From: Candidatus Poribacteria bacterium
GTDB taxonomy: Bacteria > Poribacteria > WGA-4E > WGA-3G
Assembly (NCBI GenBank): GCA_965214095.1
Contig: OZ243938.1
Location: 640,001 to 704,000, forward strand
Length of the DNA stretch: 64,000 nt
Reading direction: 5' to 3'
Positions 28,858 through 50,454 of this stretch are shown here, one piece after another. Every line of letters begins with the position of its first letter. Positions within the stretch are counted from its first letter, which is position 1. The notes beneath the pieces are model-generated. The model saw only the letters and a list, made by a program, of their open reading frames with translations, had not been told where the DNA came from and did not search any database. Position numbers and translations under genes: made by a program.

Positions 28858-29472
28858 TTATCTACCTATTAGTTTGACTTTGGCATAAATTGCTCGGAGT
28901 GCCAATTGACACTCAATAGATGCATTTATCATCACATCATTAAGAGAACGGTATTCCATTAATTTCCAATCCTCCTCTTGTCGTATATACTGTTCCACAC
29001 AGACATCGGACTGAGAAACAAGGATATATTCCTGTAAGGATTCAAGTGTTTGATAGGAATAAAATTTGCCGCGTCTATCATAATCCTCTGTTGAAGGCGA
29101 AAGCACCTCTACAACAACAGTTGGATTTAGTAAAGTATCAAAGTGTCCATCTTCAAAACGTGGTTCATCACACACAACGATTACATCTGGATAAGTGTAT
29201 AAACCACTATCACTTACTTTTACACGCATATCGTTTGTGTAAACTTCACATGTTTTATCCAAAAGTTGGATATGTAAGCCACTGGACACATTGACTGTAA
29301 TCAAATTATGATCACGACTCGCACCAGGCATCATAACAATCTGCCCGTTTCGGTATTCGCTTTTGAATTCAGCTTCCCGTTCCAAAATAATGTATTCTTC
29401 GGGTGTCAGTAGTTTTTTTTCTGGGATAGCAGACACTGTTTTCTCCTGATCACATCTTACCGTAGACAGCAC
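28858..29472 (-). CDS. Uma2 (DUF820) family endonuclease-like protein; true start probably near 29439
   Basis: KSEYRNG..M.GAS..H, YTYPDVIVVC, VVEVLSPSTEDYDR..KF motifs. Confidence 0.92.
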   Translation of the reverse strand: MLSTVRCDQEKTVSAIPEKKLLTPEEYIILEREAEFKSEYRNGQIVMMPGASRDHNLITVNVSSGLHIQLLDKTCEVYTNDMRVKVSDSGLYTYPDVIVVCDEPRFEDGHFDTLLNPTVVVEVLSPSTEDYDRRGKFYSYQTLESLQEYILVSQSDVCVEQYIRQEEDWKLMEYRSLNDVMINASIECQLALRAIYAKVKLIGR

Positions 29473-30918: not shown

Positions 30919-33627
30919 CTATTCCGATGGCAATTCTGCCAAAATCTGATCCCGCACTTTTTGTCGATCCACAACGGGTTGCACATAAAAGCGATCGATC
31001 GCTTGTCCTCCCAAACCAGAACATTTACACATCTCAACGTTCAACTCCAATTTCGTCAGTATTCCACTAAAATAGTGGAGAAAACCGACCTTCTCTTCAC
31101 CTGTTACGACGATTTCTGTGTAATTCCTTGCTGATTCTACCGCAACATCATAAACCTTCCATGTGTCACTTAGGTTGACATACCGTTTCTCAAAAATCTC
31201 CTCAAGTGTGACCTCACCAGACATCAAGCTACGTATATCAAAATCTAAATCACGTTTCAGTTCTTCGTCAAGTGGGAGTGGTTCTGAAGATTGCTGTGCT
31301 GACTGATGCACAAGCCGATATATTTCCAACTCCAAGTTTGAATCCTGTTTGGTGTAGACGCGCGCATCACGCACATCTATGTTATTCGCAAAGAATAATC
31401 CACTGACCGTATGCAGTTTTCCGATACGACTATGACCACAAAGATGTAATTCCGTAAAACCTGGTTTATCTACAAACTGCAAACTCACCGCACCAGAAGT
31501 AGAATCGTTGTTCTCTGTGGTTGTTGCTTCTGCTTGAGTCATCATTTTCATGTGGATTGATATCTCTTCAGGGGCAACACCGATACGATAGGTGACAGGC
31601 ATCTGTTGAAGGAAATGCTGGAATTCTTCTGGGGGTGAGTATGTTCCCCATTGTGATTCTTCCGGTCCTACGAATCGCACACGAACAACTTCATATAATC
31701 GTTTGAGATTGTGCTTTACAAGATTGCTAAAGTTCTGTGCACCGTTCGCCATTGAATCACAATATGTCAACAGATAGAGTGCGGTTAGTCGTTCTAACGA
31801 ATTAACCTTCTCACAAAACTCCGTAATCGTCGGTTCATCCCATTGGTGATACCGTGCTAATGTGATCATTCTGAGATGCTCTCGTATCAGAAAGCAGATA
31901 TCCTCTGTCTGTTGAGAATTAAATCCAAATTCTGGTGCAATACGTTTCGCTTTTTCCGCGCCAGTTTCTGGGTGAGCAGGATCCGGTTTATCAATATCAT
32001 GCAGGAAAAGAGCCATATAGAGCGAGGCAGTATCTGACAATGAACGAAACGCAGTATTCAACTCCTCTAACTCAGAGTTAGGAGATAGAGACATCTGTTG
32101 ACCGATGCGTGGACCACCGAAAGGACTACTGGGTTCTGTCCGACGTATCTCATCAAGATGTCCAATAGCAGTCAGTGTGTGTTTTCCTACGGTATATGGG
32201 TCAAGACTCCGTTCACTTCGAGTCATCATTGCCTTTTCAAATCGTTCTCCACCTTCTCCGAGTCGAGACAATATCCCAAGTCTATGTAGCCGCGTTAAAC
32301 TCTTTTCAACATTGCCGGGGGTATTGATGAGTTCTGCCATTCTCGGTCTAAAGCGATCCCAATCAAACGCATCAACATACGCAAAGATAAAGGTCGCAAG
32401 TGACGGATCAATCTCAAAATCGTATTGCTGGAAATAGGTGAATAGTCTATAGAGTTCGTCTGTATCCAGTTCTCCGAAGTTATTATCAATGCAATACAAC
32501 ACATCCGTTCTAACACCAAGCACATCCGAAACTGGTATGCCATTCGCAAGAAACTTACGTATCAATAATTCTGCTTTAAAGTGTAGATACTTTGCTTTGG
32601 CGTAGTAATCTGACATGAAGTCATAACGACCTTCCTCCGATTCATCAGAATAACCGAGCGCACAAGCAATCTGTGATTGGAGTGTATCTTCCTGTTCCGG
32701 ATGGAAAGAGAGTGCGTCATGTGGGGCATCTGCCAATACATGTAATAAATTCCGCACTTTGAACATAAAATCAAGAGCCGGTTTCAGCTGTTCGTCATCA
32801 AATCTCTCATATAGTTCAAGGACTGATGTAAAATTCGGTAGACCGCACATCCATAACGCATACTGAAGTGTTCGCAACCCACCGCGTCCCGTTTTTATGT
32901 CGGGTTGATTGAGATAAATCGTGTCTTCAGTGGTATTGAAAGAATCTGCTCTTGATTGAAGTAGGTCAAGGACAAGTGAAATGTCTGATTTATCGGATTG
33001 AACTGCTTTACGGAACTTTTCTGTCAATGTAGAATCGCCTGCAATAAATCGCATATCAATCAAAGCGGTCATATCCATAAAGTTCCATTTTGCTATGTCT
33101 GCCATCGGACGATAGATAAAACTAAATTCAAAACCGGGAATCACCGTATGCAAACTATCAAAAAAGTCGTAGAACCATCTGACAAGTTCCAGTGTGCCTT
33201 CGTCGTAGACATCCTCAAGGTCAACGGAAGATGTATAGACGACATCCACATCTGAAAAATAGCACAACTCATGCCTGCCGTAGCTTCCGACTCCATATAG
33301 TGCAACATCGGGAGTCCAATCTTCTGGCACTTCGTCCATAAAATCACTATAGTCAATACCCGGTATCTTCAGCAGTTCTTCTATCTGCTTGGAGTATTCT
33401 GTCTTGATTTGATAGGTAGCGACTTCATATACCTTTTGGATGATTGCGTCCCATATCTGCGTGTGGGTAGTACACGCAGAGAAACCACTCTCTCCAGCTA
33501 ATATATCTGATTTGAGTAGTTCACGCTCGGATTTGATGAATGCTCCCAACTGCTCTTGCAAGACTTGTTGAGAGATGTTAAGATTCGGAATATATTGTGT
33601 GAGTCGGTTTTCTATCTGTATTGACAT
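30919..33627 (-). CDS. glnD: [Protein-PII] uridylyltransferase
   Basis: GSYGR..SDVD nucleotidyltransferase; PDIKTGRGGLR; YTVGKHT..LHDI HD domain; C-terminal ACT-like regions. Confidence 0.85.
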   Translation of the reverse strand: MSIQIENRLTQYIPNLNISQQVLQEQLGAFIKSERELLKSDILAGESGFSACTTHTQIWDAIIQKVYEVATYQIKTEYSKQIEELLKIPGIDYSDFMDEVPEDWTPDVALYGVGSYGRHELCYFSDVDVVYTSSVDLEDVYDEGTLELVRWFYDFFDSLHTVIPGFEFSFIYRPMADIAKWNFMDMTALIDMRFIAGDSTLTEKFRKAVQSDKSDISLVLDLLQSRADSFNTTEDTIYLNQPDIKTGRGGLRTLQYALWMCGLPNFTSVLELYERFDDEQLKPALDFMFKVRNLLHVLADAPHDALSFHPEQEDTLQSQIACALGYSDESEEGRYDFMSDYYAKAKYLHFKAELLIRKFLANGIPVSDVLGVRTDVLYCIDNNFGELDTDELYRLFTYFQQYDFEIDPSLATFIFAYVDAFDWDRFRPRMAELINTPGNVEKSLTRLHRLGILSRLGEGGERFEKAMMTRSERSLDPYTVGKHTLTAIGHLDEIRRTEPSSPFGGPRIGQQMSLSPNSELEELNTAFRSLSDTASLYMALFLHDIDKPDPAHPETGAEKAKRIAPEFGFNSQQTEDICFLIREHLRMITLARYHQWDEPTITEFCEKVNSLERLTALYLLTYCDSMANGAQNFSNLVKHNLKRLYEVVRVRFVGPEESQWGTYSPPEEFQHFLQQMPVTYRIGVAPEEISIHMKMMTQAEATTTENNDSTSGAVSLQFVDKPGFTELHLCGHSRIGKLHTVSGLFFANNIDVRDARVYTKQDSNLELEIYRLVHQSAQQSSEPLPLDEELKRDLDFDIRSLMSGEVTLEEIFEKRYVNLSDTWKVYDVAVESARNYTEIVVTGEEKVGFLHYFSGILTKLELNVEMCKCSGLGGQAIDRFYVQPVVDRQKVRDQILAELPSE

Positions 33628-33743
33628 GGGTTTTAGGTTATTCTTGGTTGAGAATTAGTCCTTGATTTTTGGTGAGGTATTACTGTTGCTTTTTGTTCAT
33701 TATACACTGATGGTTTATTTTAAACAAGAGATTATGTGGAATT

Positions 33744-34230
33744 CAGGGGTATTTAGTTTTAAGGATTCATAATCATTGAGGTTAACTTTACATTTGTAAA
33801 ATAAAACCGAAGATATTACCACCACGCATTTGCATGGCTTCTGATTTGGACACGCGTGTCCAGCCGATTTCGTTAGCATATTTGGGTAGTGGTTCTTCAA
33901 CTGCGGACCGTTCAGACAAAATCGTTTCCAAATGTCAATTAGAGTGATATAGTGTTGATACTTTTAGGCAATTGGTAATTTTTTCTGTACACGAATCCTG
34001 TCTATGACTGGGTTTTCCCGATCAAAAAATTACCAATTTTACCAATTAGTAATTTAACGTAAATTGAGTAAATATTGGATATTTATAGTGAACATTGAAA
34101 ATAATAGGACAAAGTCTCTGTAAGAGCGATCTCCGAATCGCGAGTTAACTCAGTGATACTCGGGAATCGGAGTTCCCTCCTACATCTCAAAATGTCCCAT
34201 TAATTCAAGAGTTTACTATAAATAACCCTA
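33744..34230. mobile_element. Composite CAGGG-type MITE with nested elements
   Basis: CAGGGGTATTTAG...TAAATAACCCTA with 9-bp direct repeat TGTGGAATT (33735-33743, 34231-34239); nested TA-flanked MITE 34086-34218 and inverted repeat 33970-34038. Confidence 0.8.
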
Positions 34231-34252
34231 TGTGGAATTTGGAAAATCGGTA

Positions 34253-34281
34253 TTGATAATTTGATTGGATTGTGGTATAAT
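34253..34281 (+). promoter_or_regulatory. sigma70 promoter giving a probably leaderless transcript of the DUF4007 gene
   Basis: TTGATA-17 bp-TATAAT with TG extension; ATG 34288 lies 6 nt downstream; no RBS. Confidence 0.65.
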
Positions 34282-34287
34282 ACCTGT

Positions 34288-35219
34288 ATGGAAAATTTAC
34301 TTGCTGAAACTTCTTCAAGACCATATTTGGTCAACCCATCTTTTTCTGGACACCAAACCTTTCCGTTCCGATATACGTGGCTAAAAAAGGGTGTTGATGC
34401 TGTTACTAAAGAACCTACAGTTTTCTCATCAGAGAACGCATCAGTGATTTTAGGTGTTGGGAAAAATATGGTGAGTTCCATACGGCATTGGTGTAATGTC
34501 GCGGGACTAATATATAATGATAAATCAGAAAGGAGTCGTTGTGTTCCAACAGAATTAGGTAAAGCAATTTTTGAAGAAAATGGCTTTGATCCATATCTTG
34601 ACGATCCTGCTACACTATGGTTGATTCACTGGAAAATCTCAACAAATATGAACCAAGCAACGACTTGGTATTGGGCATTTAATATACAGAAGAACAACCA
34701 ATTCATACGTGAGACATTTAGACAACAGATGTCCGAATGGGTTTTACAAAATAAAAAATCTATGCGATCTGCTTCCAAAAACACACTTGATCGTGATGTA
34801 AATTGCTTTATCAGAACATACTGCCACTCACGACAAACTACTGCTGTCATGGAAGAGTCCTTTGATTGTCCACTTGTTGAACTCAATCTTATCTCCGAAC
34901 TACCTGATGGTGAAGGATATGAATTCCAACGTGGCGAAAAAGTAACATTGCCAATTGAGGTCTTCTCGGCAAAACTTGTTGCATTTTGGGTCAATCGTTT
35001 CTCTGAAAGGGATTCTCTCACATTTACAGAAATTTTGACTGCTCCTTTGAGTCCCAGACGTATTACAGATTAGATGAAAATACACCGCCCCAATATCTTG
35101 AAAAACTCGAAGAACTGACAGAAGGTGCAATGCGATACGATGAAACTACAGACTTAAAGCAAGTTTACAGACATAGAGATGTAGATCCGATGCATCTATT
35201 AAAGAGGTATTATGGCTAA
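34288..35219 (+). pseudogene. DUF4007 (SspB-like) protein, frameshifted near 35065
   Basis: FSGHQTFPFRYTWLKKG, LGVGKNMVSSIRHW, DPYLDDPATLWLIHW. After SPRRI the family-like tail (RLDENT..YLEKLE..YDETTDLKQVYR..LKRYYG*) continues in another frame to TAA 35219, overlapping the next ATG. Confidence 0.85.
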
Positions 35220-38200
35220 CGTTCCATTGTCTGATTTATTTCATGTAAAGGGTCGTTTTCGTAGATCTGTACATCTTGAACGCGACTTCTATAGAGAAAA
35301 TGCTATAGATGGTTATGTCCTTACTGCTACAGCACGCGAGATGTTATCACGTGTAATTTCAACGCTTGAGAATGGGTCGACCTCTAAAGCATGGTCACTT
35401 ACTGGTCCCTACGGGTCAGGCAAATCAGCCTTTGCACTATTTGCTGCCAAATTATTAGGAAATTCAAATTCACCTACAGCACAACAGGCTTTAGAACTAT
35501 TGGAACGTGGTGATACTTCACTATATGAGCGATTTAAAAACTCAAACGGTAATGGCAATCAGTCAGATTCTGGATTCTGTCCCGTTCTCATTTCGGGTGA
35601 ACGTGCACCACTCTCGCTTGCTTTATTACGCAGTTTGGATCGTGGACTTTTAAATTCCAACGGAACATATATATCTATTTCACTACAGCAGGAACTTAAA
35701 GAACTGTTGGAAGCGGCAAGTAAAGATTCCCTGCCGACTGCTTCCGATGTAACACATCTATATGAATCTGCAACCCAGCAAATTTGTGATTCTGGTGGAT
35801 CTGGTTTGTTACTCATAATCGATGAACTCGGTAAATTTCTTGAATTCGCGGCACAAAATCCATCACAAGGGGATATGTTTATCCTTCAGAGTCTCGCTGA
35901 ATTGGCAGACCGAAGTCAACAAACACCGTTGTTTCTAATGACTATCCTCCATCAAGCTTTTGAGGCTTATGCATTGCGAACAGAACAATCGCAACGAGAG
36001 GAATGGACAAAGGTTCAGGGAAGATTTGAAGACGTAGTTTTCACAGAACCCACTGAACAAGTGCTTCGCTTAGTTGGTGCAGCACTTGAAAAACCATCAG
36101 ATATAGTTTCTAAAGAAGATCTCAGTACTGCAACCGAATTAGGATTAATTCCACAACAACTAAATGAAAACGAATTTTCACATCTCTTACAAGAGTGTCT
36201 ACCTCTGCACCCTACAGTAGCATTACTCATTGGTCCTCTATTCAAAAGATTTGCGCAGAATGAACGTTCGCTCTTTGCTTTTCTCAATTCCAGTGAACCT
36301 TATGGATTACAAGATTTCCTAACCCAACAAGATTATGACGGTTCCATACTTCCGAAGTATACAATTGCAGACCTATACGATTATCTTGACGCAACACAAG
36401 GGAACGAACTCTTCACTTCAAGTAATGGAAAAAAGTGGGCAGAAATTGAATCGGCATTAATGCAAATACAAAACCCATCTGAACTGACAGTCAAATTGAT
36501 CAAAACGATAGGACTGCTCGGTATCGTCCGTGAATCCGTTCCAAATCTGAAAGCATCAGAAGAACTACTCCGATATGCATTATTCAATGGAGAAGAAGGA
36601 TTTGACAGTGAATATTCTAATACACTTACAACTTTAAAGAATCGTTCAATAGTTACCTATCGAAGACACAACGATGTTTATGTCTTATGGGAAGGAAGCA
36701 ACGTTGACATAGAGGAAAGACTCCGTGAAGCAGAAACACACGTTGACACAAGAGCAGCACTTGTTTCGGATTTATCACGCTACATGCCAACCCGTCCACT
36801 TGTCGCAAGACGACACCTATATCAGACTGGCACGCTACGATATTTCTCAATTCGCTACACTGATCTTGATAACTTTGATACTGACCTTAATGAACCACTC
36901 GGTGATGCAGATGGACTTATTCTATATGCTTTACCAGCAGATGACTTTGAGGTAAAGCAACTCATAGAAAAAACAACAGACGATGACATTGCAGAACGCA
37001 AAGAAGTTCTAATTGCTATTCCACATTCCATTGGTTTCCTTAACAATGCTGTAACACAACTTGCATATTTACACTGGGTTTCAGAAAACACACCCGAACT
37101 CAACGGTGATGCTGTAGCAAGACGTGAACTTGAAAAACGACTTGAAATAGTTGAACGTGAAGTGTCTGAAAGTTTGTCAGCAATATATGGCGTTGACAAC
37201 AAAGAAGCATGTGTTTGGTATCATCAAGGACAATCAACAGACATTGATTCTGAACGCGCAAGAAATGAATACCTTTCAAGAATTTGTGATAATGTATTTT
37301 CCGAAACACCGTTTATACGAAATGAACTAATCAACCGTCGCAAAATCTCTGGTGCTGTAACCTCTGCACGCAGAAAATTAATTCAAGCAATGCTTGAAAA
37401 TGGAGACAAAGAAAATCTCGGTATTTCTGGATACCCGCCTGAAATGAGTATCTACCGTTCTCTCTTATGGGATACGGGTATTCATCGTATGGAATCAGGT
37501 GTTTGGGGATTCCACCCACCAAAATCGCATGATCAAAACAGAATAGAACACACTTGGCATGCATTTGAGTCGTTTCTTAACAAATGTGAAGAGTCAAGAC
37601 AACCTGTAGAGAATCTGTATAACCATCTTAGCTTTCCACCACTTGGAGTCCGAAAGGGTCCACTTCCAATTCTGTTATGTGCAGTAATTCTCCACTACAG
37701 AACTGAAATCGCACTCTATGAAAATGGATCTTTTGTTGCTGATCTCTCAATGCCTCTCTTTGAACGATTGTTAAAAGCACCAGAGAACTTTGAACTGAAA
37801 CGTTTTCGGTTAACTGGTATACGTACAGAGTTGTTTTCACAATTCTTAGAATTGCTCAATCAACCTATATATTCAGAAGACGCTGATCTTTTGACAATCG
37901 TTGCACCACTGATGCGATTCATTGCACAACTCCCAAACTACACACAGAAAACACAAGAAATAAGTCCGGAAGCAAAAAATCTTCGAGAAGTAGTGAGCAA
38001 AGCAAGTGAGCCTGACGAACTACTTTTTAAGCAGCTGCCTGAAGCACTCGGATATTCAGTTTTTTCTGCGGAATCAACAGACACAAAGAAACTTACAGAT
38101 TTTTTCAACACACTACAAAATGCACTTTCCGAATTAGGTGGGGCGTATGACAGACTACTCAATTCACTTGAAAGGATGCTTGCAGATGCATTCATGTTAG

Positions 38201-38694
38201 AGGTCTCAAAAGACGATCTCCGAAATGAATTGACAGAAAGGGCGGAACCTCTATTAGAGATCACAGTAGAAGCACAACTCAAAGGATTCTTAATCAATCT
38301 ATGCAACGAGGGGCATGATTTTACAGGTTGGGTCGAGGCACTTGGAACATTCCTTACCAAAAAACCGCCTGCCTCATGGGTAGACACCGACACAGTACAA
38401 TTTGAGATAAACCTTTCGCAACTTGCAAGAAAATTCCGACATTTTGAAGCCGTGTCTTATGAAAAACTACAACACGATGAATCTGATACAGAAACAATAC
38501 GTATAGGAATCACAACACCTAACGAAAACGAACAGGAACGTGTTGTAAAACTAACTGATGAGCAACAAGCTAAACAAATAGAACACGCAATTATTGAAGT
38601 ATTTGAGAAATATGATTTGGATGAAAAATCTGAACTTCGTCTGGCAGTTTTGGCACGAATTACAAAAAACCTGATACGTGAATCTGATGAATAA
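35212..38694 (+). CDS. Large P-loop ATPase (SspC/BrxC-like)
   Basis: RFRRSVHLERD, Walker A GPYGSGKS, Walker B LLIIDELGK, EWTKVQGRF, PLHP, QNERSLF motifs. Confidence 0.85.
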   Translation: MANVPLSDLFHVKGRFRRSVHLERDFYRENAIDGYVLTATAREMLSRVISTLENGSTSKAWSLTGPYGSGKSAFALFAAKLLGNSNSPTAQQALELLERGDTSLYERFKNSNGNGNQSDSGFCPVLISGERAPLSLALLRSLDRGLLNSNGTYISISLQQELKELLEAASKDSLPTASDVTHLYESATQQICDSGGSGLLLIIDELGKFLEFAAQNPSQGDMFILQSLAELADRSQQTPLFLMTILHQAFEAYALRTEQSQREEWTKVQGRFEDVVFTEPTEQVLRLVGAALEKPSDIVSKEDLSTATELGLIPQQLNENEFSHLLQECLPLHPTVALLIGPLFKRFAQNERSLFAFLNSSEPYGLQDFLTQQDYDGSILPKYTIADLYDYLDATQGNELFTSSNGKKWAEIESALMQIQNPSELTVKLIKTIGLLGIVRESVPNLKASEELLRYALFNGEEGFDSEYSNTLTTLKNRSIVTYRRHNDVYVLWEGSNVDIEERLREAETHVDTRAALVSDLSRYMPTRPLVARRHLYQTGTLRYFSIRYTDLDNFDTDLNEPLGDADGLILYALPADDFEVKQLIEKTTDDDIAERKEVLIAIPHSIGFLNNAVTQLAYLHWVSENTPELNGDAVARRELEKRLEIVEREVSESLSAIYGVDNKEACVWYHQGQSTDIDSERARNEYLSRICDNVFSETPFIRNELINRRKISGAVTSARRKLIQAMLENGDKENLGISGYPPEMSIYRSLLWDTGIHRMESGVWGFHPPKSHDQNRIEHTWHAFESFLNKCEESRQPVENLYNHLSFPPLGVRKGPLPILLCAVILHYRTEIALYENGSFVADLSMPLFERLLKAPENFELKRFRLTGIRTELFSQFLELLNQPIYSEDADLLTIVAPLMRFIAQLPNYTQKTQEISPEAKNLREVVSKASEPDELLFKQLPEALGYSVFSAESTDTKKLTDFFNTLQNALSELGGAYDRLLNSLERMLADAFMLEVSKDDLRNELTERAEPLLEITVEAQLKGFLINLCNEGHDFTGWVEALGTFLTKKPPASWVDTDTVQFEINLSQLARKFRHFEAVSYEKLQHDESDTETIRIGITTPNENEQERVVKLTDEQQAKQIEHAIIEVFEKYDLDEKSELRLAVLARITKNLIRESDE

Positions 38695-38731
38695 TTATAT
38701 TGATTTTTTCTGGCACTTATAATATAATCTA

Positions 38732-38998
38732 TAGTTAGGACAATTTCTCTTGGTTACATACTGATATTGCTAGCATTTGCAATATATTGTAAGTTTTGGA
38801 TAGGATAGGACTTTGATGAAAAAGTGTGAAAACATCAAAATGAGCAGCCCCAGCGGGGCGGAATGTGTATAGAAAAATGTCCCCGACCAATGCAAGCCCC
38901 AGCGGGGCGACAGGTGTATCATTGAAGAAATAGGTCCGATGACTGTGATGCTCCTTGTCCAGAGCAATGTTCACGTCCTCAAAAAATTGTCCAAACTA
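38732..38998. mobile_element. TA-flanked MITE with two GCCCCAGCGGGGCG hairpins
   Basis: TA|TAGTTAGGACAATTT...AAATTGTCCAAACTA|TA; related partial copy at 50764-50957. Confidence 0.8.
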
Positions 38999-39251
38999 TA
39001 GTAATATAATGCATTGTATGAATAAAGCAGTCCTACAGGACGATCTTTTACCCGAATATGATTTATGAAAGTTACGGGACCGAGGGACAGGTCCTGGACA
39101 CAAATCCTTGCTGGTAAACCTATTGTCCAATTAGAACCTGACGTTGCATGGGTTTTTCCAATGTTGTAGTTGTGAATGAAGCACTACTATTTCTGATTCA
39201 CATTACAAGAAAAACAACGTTGGAGATTAATCGGGGTTATTGGGGAGCAAC

Positions 39252-40070
39252 ATGTCACAGAAAATTAGACATCTACTCGGTCTATCGGGTGGAAAAGACA
39301 GTTCTGCACTTGCTGTCTACATGCGAGACAGAGTGCCAGAGATGGAATACTTCTTCACTGATACCGGTAAAGAACTGCCAGAGACTTACGATTTTTTAGA
39401 CCGACTTGAAGCATTCCTCGGCAAACCGATTGCGCGTCTCAACGTTGAACGTGATTTTGATCATTGGTTGACACTTCACGGTGGATTATTGCCATCCTCT
39501 CAAGTCCGTTGGTGCACTATCAAACTCAAAATCAAACCTTTTGAGGAATATGTCGGCGAAGATATGGTGTATCATTACATCGGTATTCGTGCTGACGAAG
39601 ATCGTGTCGGATACAAACCACCTAAGATAAGTTCCCTTCAAAACATTTTCCCCAAATATCCATTTAAAGATGACGGTATTACCAAAGAGGACGTTTTCCG
39701 AATCCTTGAGGAGAGCGGACTCGGTTTGCCTGACTATTACAAATGGCGCACGCGTTCTGGTTGCTACTTCTGCTTTTTCCAACGCAAATCCGAATGGGTG
39801 GGACTCTTAGAGGAACACCCCGATCTCTTTGAACTTGCCAAGGGTTATGAGAAATTCAATACAGATACAGGTGAACGGTTTACATGGAGTCAGGGTGAAA
39901 GTTTAGAGGAGTTAACAGACCCAGAACGGATAGCACAAATTAAAGAACGCACAGAACAGGCAAAGACATCCAAGAAAAAGGAAAAACCGAATCGTCGTTT
40001 GATAGAAATTCTTACCGATGTTCACGATGATGAGGATGACGAGGAACCTTGTTTGGTTTGTCATAAGTGA
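39252..40070 (+). CDS. PAPS-reductase family protein (SspD-like)
   Basis: LSGGKDS PP-loop, RWCT, GIRADE, RSGCYFC, C-terminal CLVCH; GGAG RBS before ATG 39252. Confidence 0.88.
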   Translation: MSQKIRHLLGLSGGKDSSALAVYMRDRVPEMEYFFTDTGKELPETYDFLDRLEAFLGKPIARLNVERDFDHWLTLHGGLLPSSQVRWCTIKLKIKPFEEYVGEDMVYHYIGIRADEDRVGYKPPKISSLQNIFPKYPFKDDGITKEDVFRILEESGLGLPDYYKWRTRSGCYFCFFQRKSEWVGLLEEHPDLFELAKGYEKFNTDTGERFTWSQGESLEELTDPERIAQIKERTEQAKTSKKKEKPNRRLIEILTDVHDDEDDEEPCLVCHK

Positions 40071-41029
40071 AAATGTGGAGATTGGCAATGGATAGAGAAC
40101 AAATTCTGCAAAAATTTGAAACCTTACGACAATGGGGCAGTAGAGGTGAACGAGCACCACACAAACCCTTGTTGGTTCTCTATGCCATTGGTAAATTGCT
40201 ACGCGGTGAAGATAGACTTATTCCTTATACTGATGACATTGAGGAAAATCTCAAGAAATTGCTGAGAGAATTTGGTCCGAGGAGAAATACTTATTATTCA
40301 CATTTCCCATTTTGGAGACTGCAAAATGATGGAGTCTGGGAAGTCACCAATGCAAATAATATACGGCAAACAGCAAGTGGTGATGCTTATGTTACAGATT
40401 TAAGAGAAAACAACGTATCAGGTGGCTTCAATGAGACAATCTCTGAACAACTACAAAACGATTCTGATCTTGCAGTTGAAATAATTCATAGCCTTTTAGA
40501 TGCTCATTTTCCAACTTCAATTCACGAAGACATCCTACAGTCAGTTGGTATTGAACTTCCCTTACAAGCATTTGATACGAGAACGCGCACATCTAATTTC
40601 CGAACTAGCATTCTTAGAGCTTATGAGTATAAATGTGCTGTCTGTGGGTTTGATGTAAAATTGGGTGATTCTCCTGTAGCATTGGAAGCTGCACATATCA
40701 AATGGCAAAGGGCAGACGGCCCTGACATTGAAGTAAATGGATTGGCTCTCTGCTCGCTGCATCATAAGTTATTTGACCGTGGTGCATTCACATTGTCAAG
40801 ACAACTACAAATCTTAGTCTCTGATGATGCACATGGGACAACGGGTTTTCAGGAGTGGCTGATGGATTTTCACGGCAACACGATCAATTTTCCACAGAGA
40901 CGTTCCTACTATCCAGAGGAAGAGTTTATCGGTTGGCACGTCAAAGAGGTGTTTCAAGGACATTATCGTGAATTGAAATCAGCAGGAATTGAAAATACTC
41001 AACATCATAAGAAAAATAACCCTGACTGA
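40067..41029 (+). CDS. Sulfur-binding-domain (SBD) HNH endonuclease, ScoMcrA-related phosphorothioate-reading family
   Basis: N-terminal RAPHKPLLVL...HFPFWRLQNDGVW; C-terminal CAVCG..EAAHI..NGLALCSLHHKLFD. Confidence 0.8.
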   Translation: MKMWRLAMDREQILQKFETLRQWGSRGERAPHKPLLVLYAIGKLLRGEDRLIPYTDDIEENLKKLLREFGPRRNTYYSHFPFWRLQNDGVWEVTNANNIRQTASGDAYVTDLRENNVSGGFNETISEQLQNDSDLAVEIIHSLLDAHFPTSIHEDILQSVGIELPLQAFDTRTRTSNFRTSILRAYEYKCAVCGFDVKLGDSPVALEAAHIKWQRADGPDIEVNGLALCSLHHKLFDRGAFTLSRQLQILVSDDAHGTTGFQEWLMDFHGNTINFPQRRSYYPEEEFIGWHVKEVFQGHYRELKSAGIENTQHHKKNNPD

Positions 41030-43049
41030 TTCCACAGGTATGCACAAGAATATGAGAAACTATAAATCAAAATCAAACAAGTATGGATTAACTCTAAACT
41101 TTTTGGAGGTAGTTTTTGGGAAAAAAAGACTTTCTCTCCAAAAAGCAGAATACTCACATGATTTGTTTGTTGAATATAAGGAAAATCCGAATTTTTATAT
41201 CCACAGATATGATGATGGAATGTACGTCTGGGAACTTTGTCCAACAGACGAAGTATTGCCCAATTCTTTCAGCGAAGCAGAGGTAACAATAGAACACCAT
41301 GCTCCAATTTTCACCAAAATTATAGAACGTGCTATTGTTACTTTTTTTATTAATAATAATTATAAAGTTTCCAAACGTCGATATTCTTCAATATGGGAAG
41401 TCGAACTTAAAAAGGAAGATGAAGGAAGTTTTAATGCTTTGGTTGTACGACCAACTATAGTGTTTTCCTTAAGAAACTTGTACTCAAAATTGGAAAGTAG
41501 ACAAGTTGTTGCTCTCACTATTAGAAAACGAGGAAAACCAATTTTTACTGGAAGTGAAGAAGAAATTAAAACACAATTAACAGACACACGTGGATTGACA
41601 CGTAACCGTGATGAAAATTTCGTTGCATCACGGGACAATCTAAAAAGATACCTAGAAGCTACAGGGCAGATGCAAGACTATGAAAGTTTCCTTAGTGAAA
41701 TGGAAAAACCACAAAACGAATTTTCATATCTTAAACAATGTCCAGCATCCTTTAATAAAATTGCTCCAAATTTGCACCTTCCAAATGAATTGGAAGTCTC
41801 AAACTTTTTACTTGTTAATCTTCCAAGTGCTTCTTTTGAATCTACTGTGATTGACAAACCAAAATACTATTTTTACAACGAAGGGACAAAAAGAGGATAT
41901 TATAACCAGGTTGTCTCTGAATTGAGACCTTATTCATACGATCTCTTTAGAAATAGAAAGTTGAATATCCTTGTAGTCTCTCCTGATGAATATGAGGGCA
42001 GTGTTGACGAGTATATGGTAACATTGAAGAAAAAGTTGCGAGATTTATTTCATTTGAAAGATGTTAAATTCCACTTCACGATGGTGAGGTTACCAGAAAC
42101 TTATCTTAGTGCTTTAAATAAGATAGATGTAAAGGATTACGATATTGCAATTATTATTTTATCTCAACGAGACAAAGATATTGAAAGTTCGCTTTCTCCA
42201 TATTTTTTGACAAAAGCAAAGCTATTAAACCAGCGACTTCCAACTCAAGATCTAACGATAGAGGTTCTGAGAAAGAGTGATTATATTATAGACAATAATA
42301 TTGCTCTAAATGTCTATTCTAAACTTGGTGGAATAGCGTGGACGATAGAAAAGTCCGAGAAAAACATTTCAGAGCTAATTATAGGGATTGGGTCTACAGT
42401 TGATGATAGTGGGGAACGAATTATTGGTTTTGCCAATGTTTTTGACTATAATGGAGCGTACCTTGTTGGAGACTGTAGCCAATTAAGTACATTAAACGAA
42501 TATACGAAAAATCTTGAAAATTATTTGGTAGAGACTTTAACACAATCATTTGAAAAGAAAGGTTTTACAGAGAGAGATAGTGTTAGACTCATATTCCATC
42601 TGTTTAAAGAAGCAGGAAAAAAGCATGAATTGAAGTCCATTGAAAATGTTCTAAAGCGTTTTAAAGATTACAATATACAATTTAGTTTAGTGCACCTTAG
42701 TTATGGGCACAATTTTAGAATGTTCAAGAATTGGGGAAATGATCGTCCCGATCGTGGCACATTTGTACAACTGTCTTCGCGACAAGCATTGCTTCATTTG
42801 GGTGGTAGATCAGTTGTACCAATACAAATACGGTTAGATAGAAGGTCAGAATATAGAGATCTTTACGAAATCACAAGACAAGTTCTTTATTTCACTCACC
42901 TTTCATATCGCACTTTTATTCCACCAAGTCAACCAGTTACCGTTAAATATCCAAATTTAATGGCGAAAATGGTTAGTGAACTCAAGAAAGTTCCAGGATG
43001 GGATTATTCAATTCTGAATCATTTGAACGAAAAGCTCTGGTTCATTTAA
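40989..43049 (+). CDS. Long prokaryotic Argonaute, catalytically inactive (long-B-like); true start probably 41040 or 41052
   Basis: MID pocket PYFLTKAKLL..LPTQ..NIALNVYSKLGG; PIWI with LIIGIG, RLIFHLFK, RGT, QVLYFTHLSY, PVTVKY; DEDX acidic residues replaced. Confidence 0.88.
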   Translation: MKILNIIRKITLTDSTGMHKNMRNYKSKSNKYGLTLNFLEVVFGKKRLSLQKAEYSHDLFVEYKENPNFYIHRYDDGMYVWELCPTDEVLPNSFSEAEVTIEHHAPIFTKIIERAIVTFFINNNYKVSKRRYSSIWEVELKKEDEGSFNALVVRPTIVFSLRNLYSKLESRQVVALTIRKRGKPIFTGSEEEIKTQLTDTRGLTRNRDENFVASRDNLKRYLEATGQMQDYESFLSEMEKPQNEFSYLKQCPASFNKIAPNLHLPNELEVSNFLLVNLPSASFESTVIDKPKYYFYNEGTKRGYYNQVVSELRPYSYDLFRNRKLNILVVSPDEYEGSVDEYMVTLKKKLRDLFHLKDVKFHFTMVRLPETYLSALNKIDVKDYDIAIIILSQRDKDIESSLSPYFLTKAKLLNQRLPTQDLTIEVLRKSDYIIDNNIALNVYSKLGGIAWTIEKSEKNISELIIGIGSTVDDSGERIIGFANVFDYNGAYLVGDCSQLSTLNEYTKNLENYLVETLTQSFEKKGFTERDSVRLIFHLFKEAGKKHELKSIENVLKRFKDYNIQFSLVHLSYGHNFRMFKNWGNDRPDRGTFVQLSSRQALLHLGGRSVVPIQIRLDRRSEYRDLYEITRQVLYFTHLSYRTFIPPSQPVTVKYPNLMAKMVSELKKVPGWDYSILNHLNEKLWFI

Positions 43050-43967
43050 ATGTTAATAATTGAAGAATTTAAAAGATATAAACAGTATTATCTTGATCGG
43101 TCAAGTCCAAAGCAAGAGATATTTTACAAGTTTTTAAATAGAGAGACGTTGTTAGATTTTCTAACTAAAGAAGATCTGACAGATATTGAACAGATGTGTC
43201 TTTCCATTTTCTGCACTGATGTCCCTTCTAGAAAAAAATTGATAGAAAGGAAAAGGAAGGAAAAAGTAATTGGAGGAATGCACTACACAAGGAATTTAAT
43301 TGAACTCACAGCGATGGCGATTGATGATTTGAAACAAGAAGAGGATAATTTGAAAACATATTGCCAAGACAACCCTACAAGACATTTTTTTATACTCAAT
43401 CAATTGTTTCCTGATCTTACATTCTATCGAGCGGATCCACAAGGAAGTGTTGACCAAATTGCATTACATCTCTGCCAAAAAGACTTACCAAAAGAAGGAT
43501 GGAAAACTCTTTTGATCAATGCACTTTACGAAATATCAGATTTGAATGACTTCTATGTGGTTGAACAAGGATATCACCAAGCAATGGATGATCATCCCAT
43601 TATCCACCAAGTAAACGATATCCTTTATGTGAAAAATGACTGCGAGAGGTTTGTTAAAAAAACTGAACGTAATGTAAAACTCGCTATAGGGCTAGTGCTC
43701 TTTCTACTGCTGGTGGGTATATGTTTTTTAGTTCCAACAATTCGCGAAAAATGGAATGAAGTTGAACCAATTTTTGGCGTAACTGGGGTTTTCTTATTTC
43801 TAATCGTAGAATTAATTTTTATTTTTCGCGGAAAAATTCTAGACCGAACAAAATTCACTAAGATGCTTATAGAAAAGATCACCAACTTTGTATTTAAAAA
43901 GAAGGGATGTAATCGTCTACAGTTAAAAGAAAGTTTATGTCGCCTAGTAAATGTGGGTGAAAAATAA
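43050..43967 (+). CDS. Argonaute-associated protein with two C-terminal TM helices (putative effector)
   Basis: ATG immediately follows the pAgo stop; TM segments LAIGLVLFLLLVGICFLV and IFGVTGVFLFLIVELIFIF. Confidence 0.75.
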   Translation: MLIIEEFKRYKQYYLDRSSPKQEIFYKFLNRETLLDFLTKEDLTDIEQMCLSIFCTDVPSRKKLIERKRKEKVIGGMHYTRNLIELTAMAIDDLKQEEDNLKTYCQDNPTRHFFILNQLFPDLTFYRADPQGSVDQIALHLCQKDLPKEGWKTLLINALYEISDLNDFYVVEQGYHQAMDDHPIIHQVNDILYVKNDCERFVKKTERNVKLAIGLVLFLLLVGICFLVPTIREKWNEVEPIFGVTGVFLFLIVELIFIFRGKILDRTKFTKMLIEKITNFVFKKKGCNRLQLKESLCRLVNVGEK

Positions 43968-44107
43968 AACTTCTATTGTAAGTGTTATTATTCACTACTA
44001 TTGTTGTGTAAGTATGATATAACAAATTCTCTGTTATCCTTCATTCATACCTTCAAATAAGAAATGTTTGTCACTTTCCTATCAACACCACCCACCAAAA
44101 ACTTCCC

Positions 44108-44137
44108 TTGACAAACCGCCAGTCCCTCAAGTATAAT
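44108..44137 (+). promoter_or_regulatory. Consensus sigma70 promoter; homologous copies near 45597, 49514 and 52149
   Basis: TTGACA-18 bp-TATAAT in four homologous copies. Confidence 0.75.
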
Positions 44138-44174
44138 CAATAAAACAACCGGAAACCGAGGCACAACACACAGC

Positions 44175-44266
44175 ATGGCACAATATGACGAAATCGTGAA
44201 GCATCTGATGCACCAGTACGCCAATGAGTTCGCCATGCTATCCTTTAGCACACCCGATGTCCAAGT
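44175..44266 (+). pseudogene. 5' fragment of Rpn gene
   Basis: MAQYDEIVKHLMHQYANEFAMLSF matches 45665; breaks after GATGTCCAAGT. Confidence 0.85.
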
Positions 44267-44269
44267 TTT

Positions 44270-44515
44270 CAGGGTTTTTTGTTCAATATTATTCACAATC
44301 GTTAATCTTCTTGTGGGTATGTATTCCTATTTGTCTGAAGCATGATTAGTAGATGGACAGGATAGATACTTGGTGTTTCTAAGTGCCACTGAAAAGAAAA
44401 AGGTAATCATTTAGACAGGCACTTCGGCGTGACAAACTCTAATCCCGGGGAATGCCAAAAGGCATTCATACCGTTGATTTGAAAATCTACTAATCCTGAA
44501 AATCCTGGTTCAGAG
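44270..44515. repeat. CAGGG-derived element with inverted AATCCTG-type repeats; related copies 46883-47270 and 51408-51515
   Basis: TGTCTGAA..GATTAGTAGAT..CAGGAT ... AATCTACTAATCCTGAAAATCCTGGTTCAGA. Confidence 0.7.
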
Positions 44516-44532
44516 AATAAAAAGAGGAAATC

Positions 44533-44778
44533 ATGCAAGAATCTCCATTTTACGAACTAATTATACAACGTGGTGTTCAACAAGGTGCACGTGAAAATTC
44601 CATCAAGAATATCCTATCTGTGCTCACTGAGCGTTTTCCACAGAGCGATGTGCAACCAGTGGCGGAAGCACTTGAATCTATTCAAGACATTGATCGTTTG
44701 ACAGAGCTTCATCGAACAGCAGTCCGGACATTTAACGTTGAAACGTTCCTGCAAGAAATTGACAAACAGGAAGTGTAA
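44533..44778 (+). CDS. Stand-alone Rpn C-terminal domain (RpnS-like short form)
   Basis: MQESPFYELIIQRG.. homologous to the C-termini of both full Rpn genes; RBS AGAGGA. Confidence 0.75.
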   Translation: MQESPFYELIIQRGVQQGARENSIKNILSVLTERFPQSDVQPVAEALESIQDIDRLTELHRTAVRTFNVETFLQEIDKQEV

Positions 44779-44868
44779 TACCAAATCAACCTAAATCGTA
44801 GGGGCAGGGTTCCCCTGTCCATCCGTGTTCTCAGTATCAAGAATAATACAGAGCTCGTTAATTTGGTA
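44779..44868. mobile_element. TACCA-type MITE with GTAGGGGCAGGGTTCCCCTGTCC REP (duplicate near 48697-48786)
   Basis: TACCAAAT...ATTTGGTA; REP at ~44798. Confidence 0.7.
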
Positions 44869-45466: not shown

Positions 45467-45664
45467 AATAATGATATTATAGCATGAAAAAAGCCACTAA
45501 CAGGTGGCAGCTCCGAATTCTGTTTACGCTGCTATATTTTAGAAACAGATTTTTGATTTCAGTAAGAATATTGGTTCCCCTCAGTTGAATCTTTCCTTGA
45601 CAAATCACCGCCCCATCAAGTATAATCAATAAAACAACCAAAGAACCGAGGCATAACACACAGC

Positions 45665-46549
45665 ATGGCACAATATGACGAAATCGTGAAGCATCTGATG
45701 CACCAGTACGCCAATGAGTTTGCCATGCTATCCTTTGGCACACCCGATGTCCAAGTATTAGAGACACTTGACACCGAACATCAAAAGATTAAGGTGCATC
45801 GCAATGATATGACATTTAAAGTGCTATGGCACAATGAGACAGTCCTTCTACATATAGAGGTGCAAACGGAGGATAGTAGAGATAAACCGATGCCGTTCCG
45901 GATGCTCTCTTATGCGAGTGAACTTCTATTACGTCATGAACTTCCCGTATATTCGGTAGTGATATATTTGAGTCCAAATGCAGGGCAGACCGACCCAGGC
46001 GGTTATAGTTATGGAAATGATGTGTTCGGTTTGCAGCATAAATATCAGGTAATTCGGTTGGCGGATTTAGAAGGGGAAGCGTTTTTGGAAGCAGCATCGG
46101 TTGGACTGCTACCGTTTACGCCTTTAATGAAGCCACCAGAGGGTATCAACACAGAAGCCTGGTTGCAAAGATGTGTTGAGAAGACAGAAGCCGCACCCGT
46201 TGACACACAGACGCGTGGAACACTGTTGTTTGCCCTATCTCTATTAGGTGGTTTAGTCCATGACCCAAGTTTTTTTGAAAAACTTATAACGGAGGAAATC
46301 ATGCAAGAATCTCCTTATTATGAACTGCTTGCGCAGCGAATCTATGAACGAACTGCCCGTGAAACTTCTATCAATTATATTCTATCTGTGCTTACAAAAC
46401 GTTTTCCGTTGAGCGATGTACAACCTGTAGCGGAAGTACTGGAATCTATTCATGACCTTGATAGATTAACAGAGCTGCATCTCACTGCAATTGACATACC
46501 AAGTGTTGAGACATTCTTACAAACAATTGTTAGAACTTATAGCGAGTAA
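45665..46549 (+). CDS. Rpn family (YhgA-like PD-(D/E)XK) nuclease
   Basis: YD...K.L, D..F...LLHIEVQT..MPFRMLSY, PVYSVVIYL, GLLPFTPLM, IMQESP motifs. Confidence 0.88.
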   Translation: MAQYDEIVKHLMHQYANEFAMLSFGTPDVQVLETLDTEHQKIKVHRNDMTFKVLWHNETVLLHIEVQTEDSRDKPMPFRMLSYASELLLRHELPVYSVVIYLSPNAGQTDPGGYSYGNDVFGLQHKYQVIRLADLEGEAFLEAASVGLLPFTPLMKPPEGINTEAWLQRCVEKTEAAPVDTQTRGTLLFALSLLGGLVHDPSFFEKLITEEIMQESPYYELLAQRIYERTARETSINYILSVLTKRFPLSDVQPVAEVLESIHDLDRLTELHLTAIDIPSVETFLQTIVRTYSE

Positions 46550-48632: not shown

Positions 48633-50231
48633 AACAGCAGTCCGGACATTCAACGTTGAAACGTTCCTGCAAGAAATTGACAAACAGGAAGTGTAATACC
48701 AAATCAACCTAAATCGTAGGGGCAGGGTTCCCCTGTCCATCCGTGTTCTCAGTATCAAGAATAATACAGAGCTCGTTAATTTGGTATAATACTTCCTCTG
48801 TCTGAACGATCTCCGAACGGATGACAAACATAGACTAATCCGTCAACGCATCAATCCCACACACAGCAAATATCCATCAGGACTCGTTGCTATAGCGGGT
48901 GTCTTCGCTAACGACTTCTTCTGTGGTTCCGTTCAAAAACTCTGATAGCAGTTGCGGTTTTTTACCGCCACAGTCGTTCAGATGGACAACAGTGACTACC
49001 TCAGGGTCACTTGCTGCCTCTATATCTTCAATATCAGCATCGTCATAGAATGGGTTTTGTATCTTGAGAAGCTGCTGAAATGCTTTGACCTCCTCTTTCA
49101 TCTCAGCGATTTTGTGTATCCTCTCAAGATACCTATACTACACATGTGTGCGAGCATTTTCCACACGGAGATATAGATCCAGTTTCTTTTTCTGTTTAGT
49201 ATTGAGATCACTTTTCTTTATCTTCCCATCTTCAAGCTGCTGCTTGTATTCTTCTCCGTCTCTCAACCAGTTCCGAAGAGTCTGGTAAGTGATCCCACAA
49301 TAGGCTGCAATGCGATGCAACGGGAGATTGGATACTTCCACAGCAGTCACGATTCGTTCTGCGATAGTTGGTGTTAATTTCATAATAATGATATTATAGC
49401 ATGAAAAAAGCCACTAACAGGTGGCAGCTCCGAATTCTGTTTACGCAACATTATTTTAGAAACAGATTTTTGATTTCAGTAAGAATATTGGTTTCTCTCA
49501 GTTGAATCTTTCCTTGACAAATCACCGCCCCATCAAGTATAATCAATAAAACAACCAAAGAACCGAGGCATAACACACTGCATGGCACAATATGACGAAA
49601 TCGTGAAGCATCTGATGCACCAGTACGCCAATGAGTTTGCCATGCTATCCTTTGGCACACAAGATGTCCAAGTATTAGAGACACTTGACACCGAACACCA
49701 AAAGATTAAGGTGCATCGCAATGACATGACATTTAAAGTGCTATGGCACAATGAGACAGTCCTTCTACATATAGAGGTGCAAACACAGGATAGCAGAGAT
49801 AAACCGATGCCATTGCGGATGCTCTCTTATGCAAGTGAACTCCTGCTACGTCATGAACTTCCCGTGTATTCGGTGGTGATATATTTAAGTCCAAATGCGG
49901 GGCAGACCGACCCGGGTGGATACAGTTATGGAAATGATGTGTTCGGTTTGCAGCATAAATATCAGGTAATTCGGTTGGCGGATTTAGAAGGGGAGGCGTT
50001 TTTGGAAGCAGCATCGGTTGGACTGCTACCGTTTACGCCTTTAATGAAGCCACCAGAGGGTATCAACACAGAAGCATGGTTGCAAAGATGTGTTGAGAAG
50101 ACAGAAACCGCACCCGTTGACTTACAAACACGTGGAACGCTGTTGTTTGCCCTATCTCTATTAGGTGGCTTAGTCCATGACCCAAGTTTTTTTGAAAAAC
50201 TTATAACGGAGGAAATCATGCAAGAATCTCC
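48633..50231. repeat. ~1.6 kb direct repeat, copy 2
   Basis: Matches 44715-46314. Confidence 0.92.
48877..49383 (-). pseudogene. TerS-like HTH gene with a single in-frame TAG (49138-49140)
   Basis: ORFs 49138-49383 and 48877-49101 are in frame, joined by YRYLERIHKIAE. Confidence 0.7.
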
Positions 50232-50454
50232 ATTTTACGAACTAATTATACAACGTGGTGTTGAACGAGGTGCACGTGAAACTTCCATCAATAATATTCT
50301 ATCTGTGCTCACTGAGCGTTTTCCACAGAGCGGTGTGCAACCAGTGGTGGAAGCACTTGAATCTATTCAAGACCTTGATCACTTGACAATATTGCTTCGT
50401 AAAGCAGTCAAGACTCCCAGTGTCAAAGAATTCTTACAAGCAATTGATTCATAA
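49582..50454 (+). CDS. Rpn family nuclease, second intact copy
   Basis: N-terminal ~215 aa near-identical to the 45665 copy; divergent C-terminus. Confidence 0.88.
   Translation: MAQYDEIVKHLMHQYANEFAMLSFGTQDVQVLETLDTEHQKIKVHRNDMTFKVLWHNETVLLHIEVQTQDSRDKPMPLRMLSYASELLLRHELPVYSVVIYLSPNAGQTDPGGYSYGNDVFGLQHKYQVIRLADLEGEAFLEAASVGLLPFTPLMKPPEGINTEAWLQRCVEKTETAPVDLQTRGTLLFALSLLGGLVHDPSFFEKLITEEIMQESPFYELIIQRGVERGARETSINNILSVLTERFPQSGVQPVVEALESIQDLDHLTILLRKAVKTPSVKEFLQAIDS

Follow-up and report, generated by a model that had tools for sequence, protein, structure and literature searches.

The DNA analysed here is a 64,000-nucleotide (nt) stretch of contig OZ243938.1 from a Candidatus Poribacteria bacterium, a sponge symbiont; the whole stretch is called the window, and all coordinates are positions within it unless another locus is named. 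Six open reading frames (ORFs) from a program-made list occupy 34261–43967, all on the + strand. They encode SspB, SspC and SspD of a system that writes phosphorothioate (PT) into DNA, a nuclease carrying a sulfur-binding domain (SBD) at its N-terminus and an HNH domain at its C-terminus (SBD-HNH), a prokaryotic Argonaute (pAgo) of long-B type, and a protein with two predicted transmembrane (TM) segments (Table 1). A sequence-only reading of the window had placed six same-strand genes here, and all six identities it named agree with profile searches of Pfam, PADLOC and NCBIfam. Its description of the genes as mostly abutting or overlapping holds for the last four, but not for SspB-SspC or SspC-SspD, which are separated by gaps of 138 nt and 545 nt, respectively. 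With moderate confidence, we regard the locus as two adjacent and separable defence modules, SspBCD with SBD-HNH and a BPAM-like pAgo with its TM protein, neither of which would need the other. The two modules are probably co-transcribed.

Table 1. Features of the defence locus and the candidate sulfur donor, with positions in the 64,000-nt window
Feature	Positions	Strand	Evidence
Class-V aminotransferase/cysteine desulfurase, candidate sulfur donor (SspA/IscS role)	22526–23686	+	Pfam Aminotran_5 4.4e-90
SspB (DUF4007)	34261–35073	+	Pfam DUF4007 4e-76; PADLOC SspB 1.8e-83
SspC, 1160-amino-acid (aa) ATPase (BrxC-like)	35212–38694	+	PADLOC SspC E=0, 1137 bits, model 2–1053 of 1054
Dispersed repeat resembling a miniature inverted-repeat transposable element (MITE-like), between sspC and sspD	38723–39009	none	Matches in own genome
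SspD (PAPS-reductase-type ATP pyrophosphatase)	39240–40070	+	PAPS_reduct 1.1e-11; PADLOC SspD 1.5e-118, model 1–277 of 277
SBD-HNH nuclease (N-terminal SBD, C-terminal HNH)	ORF 40067–41029, probable start 40088	+	NF045808, HNH_2
pAgo, long-B type, 665 aa	ORF 40989–43049, probable start 41052	+	Piwi 3.8e-18; PADLOC pAgo PDLC02395 1.4e-220
bAgaM-like effector, 305 aa, no family	43050–43967	+	Two hydrophobic segments

The writer genes of the Ssp system, SspB, SspC and SspD, are encoded together and cover their PADLOC models to near full length. The desulfurase lies 10.6 kb upstream of sspB. PADLOC models place it at 7.1e-157 for DndA and 2.3e-156 for SspA and cannot separate it from housekeeping IscS/NifS; it may be a plain housekeeping enzyme, and Ssp systems have been reported to use IscS (PMC8092258). 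The PADLOC model for SspE (PDLC02783) had no match in the bacterium's own genome, which is 94% complete; SspFGH was not searched for. Among sspBCD clusters, 2,211 of 2,678 are reported to have neither sspE nor sspFGH (PMC8092258).

The gene that follows sspD encodes a protein matching NCBIfam NF045808, 'phosphorothioated DNA-binding restriction endonuclease', over model positions 2–284 of 284 (8.7e-107; 356.5 bits against a cut-off of 180), and Pfam HNH_2 at residues 190–243 (3.7e-11). Residues 14–159 can be aligned to two SBDs of known structure, those of SprMcrA (7cc9, 1.9e-8) and ScoMcrA (5zmo, 2.1e-6). Across 24 relatives, the H-K-P and P-F-W motifs of the SBD are invariant, as are the C..C, H, N and H-H columns of the HNH motif. 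The sulfur pocket is described as H, R/K and P (PMC6224610), and these residues (H116, R/K117 and P165 of ScoMcrA) were placed in our protein by motif and not by alignment to ScoMcrA numbering. Compared with SprMcrA, EcoWI and their kin (PMC7461809, PMC6224610, PMC7470945), the two-domain build is the same and H, K (in place of R117) and P of the pocket are kept, whereas the position of Y164 is occupied by F. With these motifs in place, the protein looks competent.

We surveyed 176 Poribacteria genomes for the Ssp and SBD-HNH genes, counting an HNH gene only above the NF045808 cut-off. SBD-HNH was found in 78 genomes (83 matches) and SspD in 124. On the same strand and within 10 kb of sspD lie 65 of the 83 HNH genes, in two gene orders: 34 start no more than 200 nt downstream of sspD, a further 10 are preceded by sspD at a distance of up to 10 kb, and 21 stand 4.8–5.3 kb upstream of sspD in the order HNH-SspB-SspC-SspD (seen in L096). 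The other genes either have no SspD match on their contig (15) or are more than 10 kb away from one (3). Counted from the side of the writer, there are 139 SspD matches that reach 700 nt, and 62 of these have such an HNH within 10 kb. SspE, whose domains are labelled DUF262/DUF1524-type, was detected with PDLC02783 in 17 of the 176 genomes; by eye, it lies within 3 kb downstream of an sspD copy in 15 of these, and within about 420 nt in 12. In several genomes, SspE accompanies one ssp locus and SBD-HNH a second, and the G154 locus has HNH at its 5' end and SspE at its 3' end. The position behind sspD is thus taken by SBD-HNH at some Poribacteria loci and by SspE at others. This supports the proposed occupation of the usual Ssp effector slot by a PT-reading nuclease, with SBD-HNH right after sspD in 34 cases and SspE, at other sspD copies, in about 12. 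Tandem SBD-HNH copies were also observed in some genomes (G047, G172).

This pattern was not encountered in the other phyla sampled. NF045808 matches above cut-off were present in 4 of 401 sampled genomes from the phylum of G176 (Planctobacterium marinum) and in 3 of 401 from that of G177 (Sunxiuqinia elliptica), and sspD was within 1.5 kb of SBD-HNH at 0 of these 7 loci. The result agrees with the published figure of less than 3.6% of SBD-HNH genes near dnd clusters (PMC7461809). Kin of SprMcrA and EcoWI are thus reported as rarely near PT writers, whereas the gene studied here is in or beside an ssp operon, like 65 of the 83 in Poribacteria.

As their families suggest, SspB, SspC and SspD would write PT on host DNA together with a desulfurase encoded elsewhere. 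SBD-HNH, holding the place of SspE, would read PT through its N-terminal SBD and nick or cut through its HNH domain. It may serve as the restriction partner of SspBCD, sensing PT as SspE does. We prefer this SspE-like role, to which we give about even chances within the Ssp module, because the linkage is tight in two gene orders, and keeping HNH and sspD together in both orders argues for function. Since the reader coexists with apparently intact writers in dozens of genomes, SBD-HNH must spare the host's own PT pattern. Nor does the host require PT as a shield against the enzyme, given that HNH persists where the writer has been lost, as in G091, which keeps SspD-HNH with no SspC match, and in 11 of the 78 HNH-bearing genomes, which have no SspD match. 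Tolerated host PT and persistence without a writer fit an SspE-like partner, and they fit a type IV enzyme acting on foreign PT as well.

Two points pull against the SspE-like role. Characterised SBD-HNH enzymes cut PT-DNA (PMC7461809), and a PT writer beside a PT-cutting enzyme would be paradoxical, the SspE-like mode itself being predicted from sequence. The 11 genomes with HNH and no SspD match further indicate that the enzyme can stand alone. The locus could instead hold three independent systems, SBD-HNH being a stand-alone type IV enzyme directed at foreign PT (e.g. Dnd-type double-stranded) that came to lie in an ssp neighbourhood through island clustering or selection for compatibility, with SspBCD acting as an orphan modifier or with another partner. 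The characterised SBD-HNH proteins are indeed PT-dependent type IV nucleases (PMC7461809, PMC6224610), G091 has SspD-HNH without SspC, and a large share of sspBCD clusters is reported without sspE or sspFGH (PMC8092258). We nevertheless think this explanation unlikely. Two-gene-order, same-strand linkage to sspD within 10 kb, with 34 genes starting within 200 nt after it, and the alternation of HNH with SspE in one slot are not what it predicts; nor would chance clustering give a pattern specific to one phylum, as the 0/7 count elsewhere indicates.

We return to the SspE-like partner as the preferred role of SBD-HNH and turn to the second module. A profile built from 25 relatives of the pAgo gave EcAgo (23wq, 7.9e-70) and RsAgo (about 4e-50), both long-B, as its best solved matches. 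In the MID domain of P0001, the database copy of the protein, Y384, K388, Q399 and K424 are invariant or nearly so in the family and align with Y426/K430/Q441/K469 of EcAgo, and with RsAgo; in EcAgo, these Y-K-Q-K residues hold the 5' phosphate of the guide RNA (PMC13535254). A G-I-G-S-T strand is invariant in the family and was aligned to G-I-G-S of EcAgo and G-M-G of RsAgo, these two being the aligned partners. We take this strand to be the site of the first catalytic Asp. The pAgo is presumably catalytically inactive and able to bind a guide. A different, larger type of Argonaute-like protein also occurs in Poribacteria, as frames of 1114–1136 aa in G153, G129 and G158 (L008–L010) that are 25–27% identical to the PIWI half of this pAgo.

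The protein encoded directly downstream of the pAgo has hydrophobic segments at residues 206–234 and 237–265 behind an all-helical N-domain of about residues 1–180 (AlphaFold 2 model, mean predicted local distance difference test score 79). Foldseek found nothing for this model in the PDB at E ≤0.001, a profile of the TM family found nothing below E 0.1 among PDB sequences, and the ESM Atlas gave no usable match. A profile search for relatives returned 36 proteins, none of them named, and no link to EabAgaM. The arrangement itself is recurrent. Among the 48 genome loci that hold the 3' end of a related pAgo, a two-TM ORF of ~300 aa begins within about 25 nt of the pAgo stop in 17, and tblastn matched the TM protein downstream of the pAgo in 23 of 71 metagenome loci. 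The pAgos with a TM partner are at least 35% identical to this pAgo and come from Bacteroidota, Bacillota, Gammaproteobacteria and a Heimdallarchaeota bin. In the remaining genome loci, whose pAgos are 26–36% identical, the downstream ORF has no TM segment and is about 300–390 aa long (once 111 aa). Four of these ORFs were tested, giving two REase_DpnII-MboI matches and two without a family, and a profile of 21 of them matches the nuclease domain of EcbAgaN (4.5e-15).

The TM family and the nuclease family of the sister pAgos are homologous over their N-terminal ~180 residues (hhalign probability 98.2%, E 3.3e-14). No sequence homology was detected between either of these N-domains and that of EcbAgaN itself. 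In EcBPAN, the EcbAgaN N-domains are described as engaging pAgo-guide-target complexes (PMC13535254), and by analogy the N-domain of the TM protein is probably the part that docks on the pAgo, with the TM helices as its output. The shared N-terminus suggests that the membrane and nuclease effectors of related long-B pAgos have a common docking module with swappable outputs.

The claim that the pair consists of an inactive long-B pAgo and a membrane effector is in keeping with its nearest solved relatives, EcAgo and RsAgo, the two hydrophobic segments and the recurrent downstream ORF. In the BPAM system, EaAgo is paired with EabAgaM, whose C-terminal TM region is 106 residues long, and both proteins were required for cell death (PMC10620215). 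Both pairs are made of two genes with the pAgo upstream, and the TM part of the BPAM effector occupies its C-terminal ~100 residues (PMC10620215). The likeness is one of architecture and not of sequence to EaAgo or EabAgaM, and our pair, unlike BPAM, lies behind SBD-HNH in five Poribacteria genomes. BPAN (EcAgo-EcbAgaN, 23wq) contains the closest solved pAgo and has the MID Y-K-Q-K in common with ours; its EcbAgaN is a PD-(D/E)XK nuclease (PMC13535254), whereas the output here is a pair of TM helices. By analogy with these systems, the inactive long-B pAgo would load a guide bearing a 5' phosphate (probably an RNA, as for EcAgo) and recognise invader nucleic acid. It would then engage the N-domain of its effector, whose two C-terminal TM helices would damage the membrane and cause abortive infection.

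The sequence-only reading had gone further and made the Argonaute module part of the Ssp system, a claim that the distribution of the two modules does not bear out. Outside Poribacteria, SspB, SspC, SspD or SBD-HNH occurred at 0 of 46 genome loci of related pAgos and at 0 of 71 from metagenomes; 1 kb or more of upstream sequence was available at 38 and 55 of these, respectively. Four pAgo-bearing genomes of other phyla, three with a TM effector and one with a nuclease effector, had no NF045808 match above cut-off. Within Poribacteria, close relatives of the pAgo are present in 7 of the 176 genomes, five full length and two as fragments. In G047, pAgo-TM stands behind a Type III restriction-modification system with no HNH there, and G046 has a pAgo fragment only. 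The HNH protein was also considered as an effector of the pAgo and ruled out, as it is without the N-domain that the effectors share (hhalign probability 0.1%).

A comparison with close relatives delimits the pAgo module further. Homology stops at about 40975, the canonical HNH stop, and resumes at about 44084, so that pAgo-TM and its spacer constitute the indel. In the closest relative, G091, whose flanks are about 92% identical at the nt level, SspD-HNH is present and both SspBC and pAgo-TM are absent; its post-HNH slot (L098 4346–9655) contains DUF6884 (PDC-M57A), PIN-like, BrxD-like ATPase and TGT/DpdA-like genes. The same slot in G105 (L099 10605–13036) holds a DndB/DpdB-like gene, and its cargo differs from relative to relative. 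The right border of this variable slot is conserved in five related genomes and is formed by a homologue of paralogous ORFs that lie in the window at 44084–44782, 45588–46549 and 49505–50454 (294 and 290 aa, with pieces of a third copy); these ORFs matched no Pfam or PADLOC family.

Linkage of HNH and pAgo is found in four Poribacteria genomes besides that of the window, so the arrangement extends beyond this genome. G149 has SspC-SspD-HNH-pAgo-TM, G019 has SspD-HNH-pAgo-TM with pAgo-TM intact, and G175 has HNH-pAgo(broken)-TM. In G095, the order is SspD, an SspD fragment, HNH, an 833-aa gene encoding TIR and a STAND NTPase (L019 5944–8445), and a tail fragment of HNH that precedes pAgo-TM. 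The SspC query had no match in G019, G175 or G091. The sspB-sspD interval of G019 (L020 1000–8100) holds an enolase-superfamily gene, a GFO/IDH/MocA oxidoreductase and a leucine-rich repeat protein where sspC is expected; the writer of G019 thus seems broken beside an apparently intact SspD-HNH-pAgo-TM.

Several features of these junctions weigh against full separability of the modules. HNH and pAgo are adjacent in five Poribacteria genomes from three genera, and in none elsewhere. In the five linked loci, 104–112 nt separate the HNH stop from the first conserved pAgo motif, and these stretches are 42–62% identical to one another. This junction has been kept while the linked pAgos diverged to 62–69% identity and the neighbouring cargo turned over, and selection for the combination could be the reason that it persisted. 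In the HNH tree, G019 and G175 have HNHs placed outside their genus clades, on long branches, which weakly hints that HNH may have travelled along with pAgo-TM in these two genomes. Lastly, no terminator-like site was found on the + strand outside coding sequence from sspD to the end of the TM gene, and co-expression of this stretch is likely; a promoter and terminator scan of 33600–44700 was uninformative, giving fewer sites than shuffled sequence (25 against 33.6 and 5 against 6.8).

These observations would be expected if SspBCD, SBD-HNH, pAgo and the TM effector formed one pathway in this Poribacteria lineage, for example with PT marks or HNH cuts licensing or feeding the pAgo, or with pAgo/TM as an abortive backup when PT restriction fails. 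The genes are on the same strand with short spacers, the HNH-pAgo spacer retains its length and part of its sequence, and two pAgo-linked HNHs lie outside their genus clades as if they had moved with the pAgo. We judge such an integrated pathway distinctly unlikely. The linkage is missing from all 117 pAgo loci outside Poribacteria and from G047, and the five spacers, alike in length and sequence, suggest a single ancestral HNH-pAgo junction, making the sample effectively n=1. The SspC query was empty in two of the linked genomes, G019 and G175, the former with an intact pAgo-TM, and in G095 the TIR-STAND gene parts HNH from pAgo; moreover, the effector N-domain characteristic of pAgo partners is missing from the HNH. 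EcAgo, the closest relative with a solved structure, is described as using RNA guides (PMC13535254), and guide supply from HNH cleavage fits poorly with its 5'-phosphorylated guide RNA, if the analogy holds. A narrower form, in which SBD-HNH, pAgo and TM are one co-transferred and co-transcribed unit behind an Ssp writer and PT reading is coupled to Argonaute sensing, is in our estimate a long shot; PT marks or HNH action might decide which targets the pAgo treats as foreign, or pAgo/TM might fire once PT restriction is overcome.

The HNH phylogeny contains 33 rows: G095, G175 and a second copy from G047 were added to the 30 best loci, and three duplicates and hits of less than 250 aa were dropped. 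The five pAgo-linked HNHs do not group in this tree; 5 changes are needed, at least 3 of them forced by supported branches, and the HNH of the window is sister to that of G091 (support 99), which has no pAgo. We conclude that the HNH-pAgo linkage is real, recurrent and confined to one lineage, and that it probably goes back to one event. On the two-module interpretation that we favour, the Ssp/SBD-HNH and pAgo-TM modules would have been transferred or retained jointly in a few Poribacteria.

Two features of the window raise the question of whether its copy is still functional. The ~285-bp repeat in the SspC-SspD gap has 45 matches in its own genome, of which about 20 exceed 150 nt, and its best copies are 82–96% identical over about 280 nt. 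It contains G+C-rich palindromes, and a further copy is at 50761–50959. The sspC-sspD spacing in relatives is only about 60–290 nt, and a relative in run X5 is without the repeat at this site. In addition, the HNH stop of the relatives (...YREL-stop) reads AAA here at 40976–40978, and the HNH ORF reads through for 17 codons into the spacer ahead of the pAgo. The locus could thus be decaying and partly inactive, with its operon split by a MITE-like insertion, its HNH stop lost and its arrangement devoid of present function. Decay is also evident among relatives, in the broken pAgo of G175, the pAgo fragment of G046, the deletion of SspBC in G091 and the internal stops in SspD of G021, G050 and G079. 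However, none of the six ORFs is truncated when set against its model and the read-through adds just 17 residues past the conserved end, and we hold decay of the window's copy to be very improbable.

The arrangement of the locus is not an assembly artefact at the SspD-HNH-pAgo-TM joins, as contigs from three samples (one study, possibly the assembly's own source) span 38937–44100 without differences. The 665-aa length of P0001 places the pAgo start probably at 41052, 22 nt past the HNH stop and without overlap with HNH. To the left, genes for a GlnD-like protein, an epimerase, a methyltransferase, Uma2, UvrC and YibE/F separate the desulfurase from sspB; to the right are the housekeeping genes PfkB, TPR protein, lipoate ligase, TrpC and TrpD. 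The locus is a chromosomal defence island between housekeeping genes. The Uma2-family putative endonuclease (28858–29472, − strand) matches PADLOC candidate family PDC-S03 (4.5e-32) and lies amid housekeeping genes. A PADLOC 'PrimPol' match on a 959-aa ORF at 53189–56068 was rejected as spurious, Pfam giving a TPR-repeat protein.

Set against SspABCD-SspE and SspABCD-SspFGH, the locus has the same SspB-SspC-SspD order, with the effector gene directly 3' of sspD and the desulfurase elsewhere, as reported for some Ssp loci (PMC8092258, PMC9646914). It differs from them in that the effector slot holds an SBD-HNH of the PT-dependent type IV family, not SspE or SspFGH. The nearest published parallel to this pairing is mcrA in the BREX type 4 locus of Bacteroides salyersiae (brxP-mcrA-brxC), which likewise combines a PAPS-reductase-type PT writer, a BrxC/SspC ATPase and an McrA-like reader (PMC12914056), the McrA-like proteins being likened by description. 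In the account of that locus, mcrA was unnecessary for PT synthesis and otherwise untested (PMC12914056). BREX type 4 also has BrxZ (PglZ) and BrxL, whereas the locus described here has SspB/C/D with no PglZ or BrxL.

In the papers searched, we found no description of SspBCD paired with SBD-HNH (supplementary tables of PMC10620215 and PMC7461809, including Table S4 of the latter, may list cases), and none of a link between a PT system and an Argonaute, for which the supplementary tables of the same two papers may also hold examples. The Ssp variant that has SBD-HNH as its putative partner is widespread in Poribacteria and apparently undescribed, and the Ssp/SBD-HNH pairing is the more novel part of the locus. 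The pAgo-TM pair appears, by analogy, to be a new member of the BPAM kind and would add a BPAM-like clade. Were PT reading and Argonaute sensing coupled after all, this would be the first link of a DNA-backbone modification system to an Argonaute.

Most sspBCD clusters are reported without a known restriction partner (PMC8092258), and SBD-HNH in the slot of SspE is a candidate for one. Current models have reader nucleases avoiding writers (PMC7461809), and for these the pairing is a paradox. It would, if functional, represent a further type of PT defence and suggest a testable mechanism by which a PT reader could leave self DNA intact. SBD-HNH is present in 78 of the 176 Poribacteria genomes, whereas the samples of two other phyla had it in 4 of 401 and 3 of 401, which points to heavy use of PT-based immunity in these sponge symbionts.

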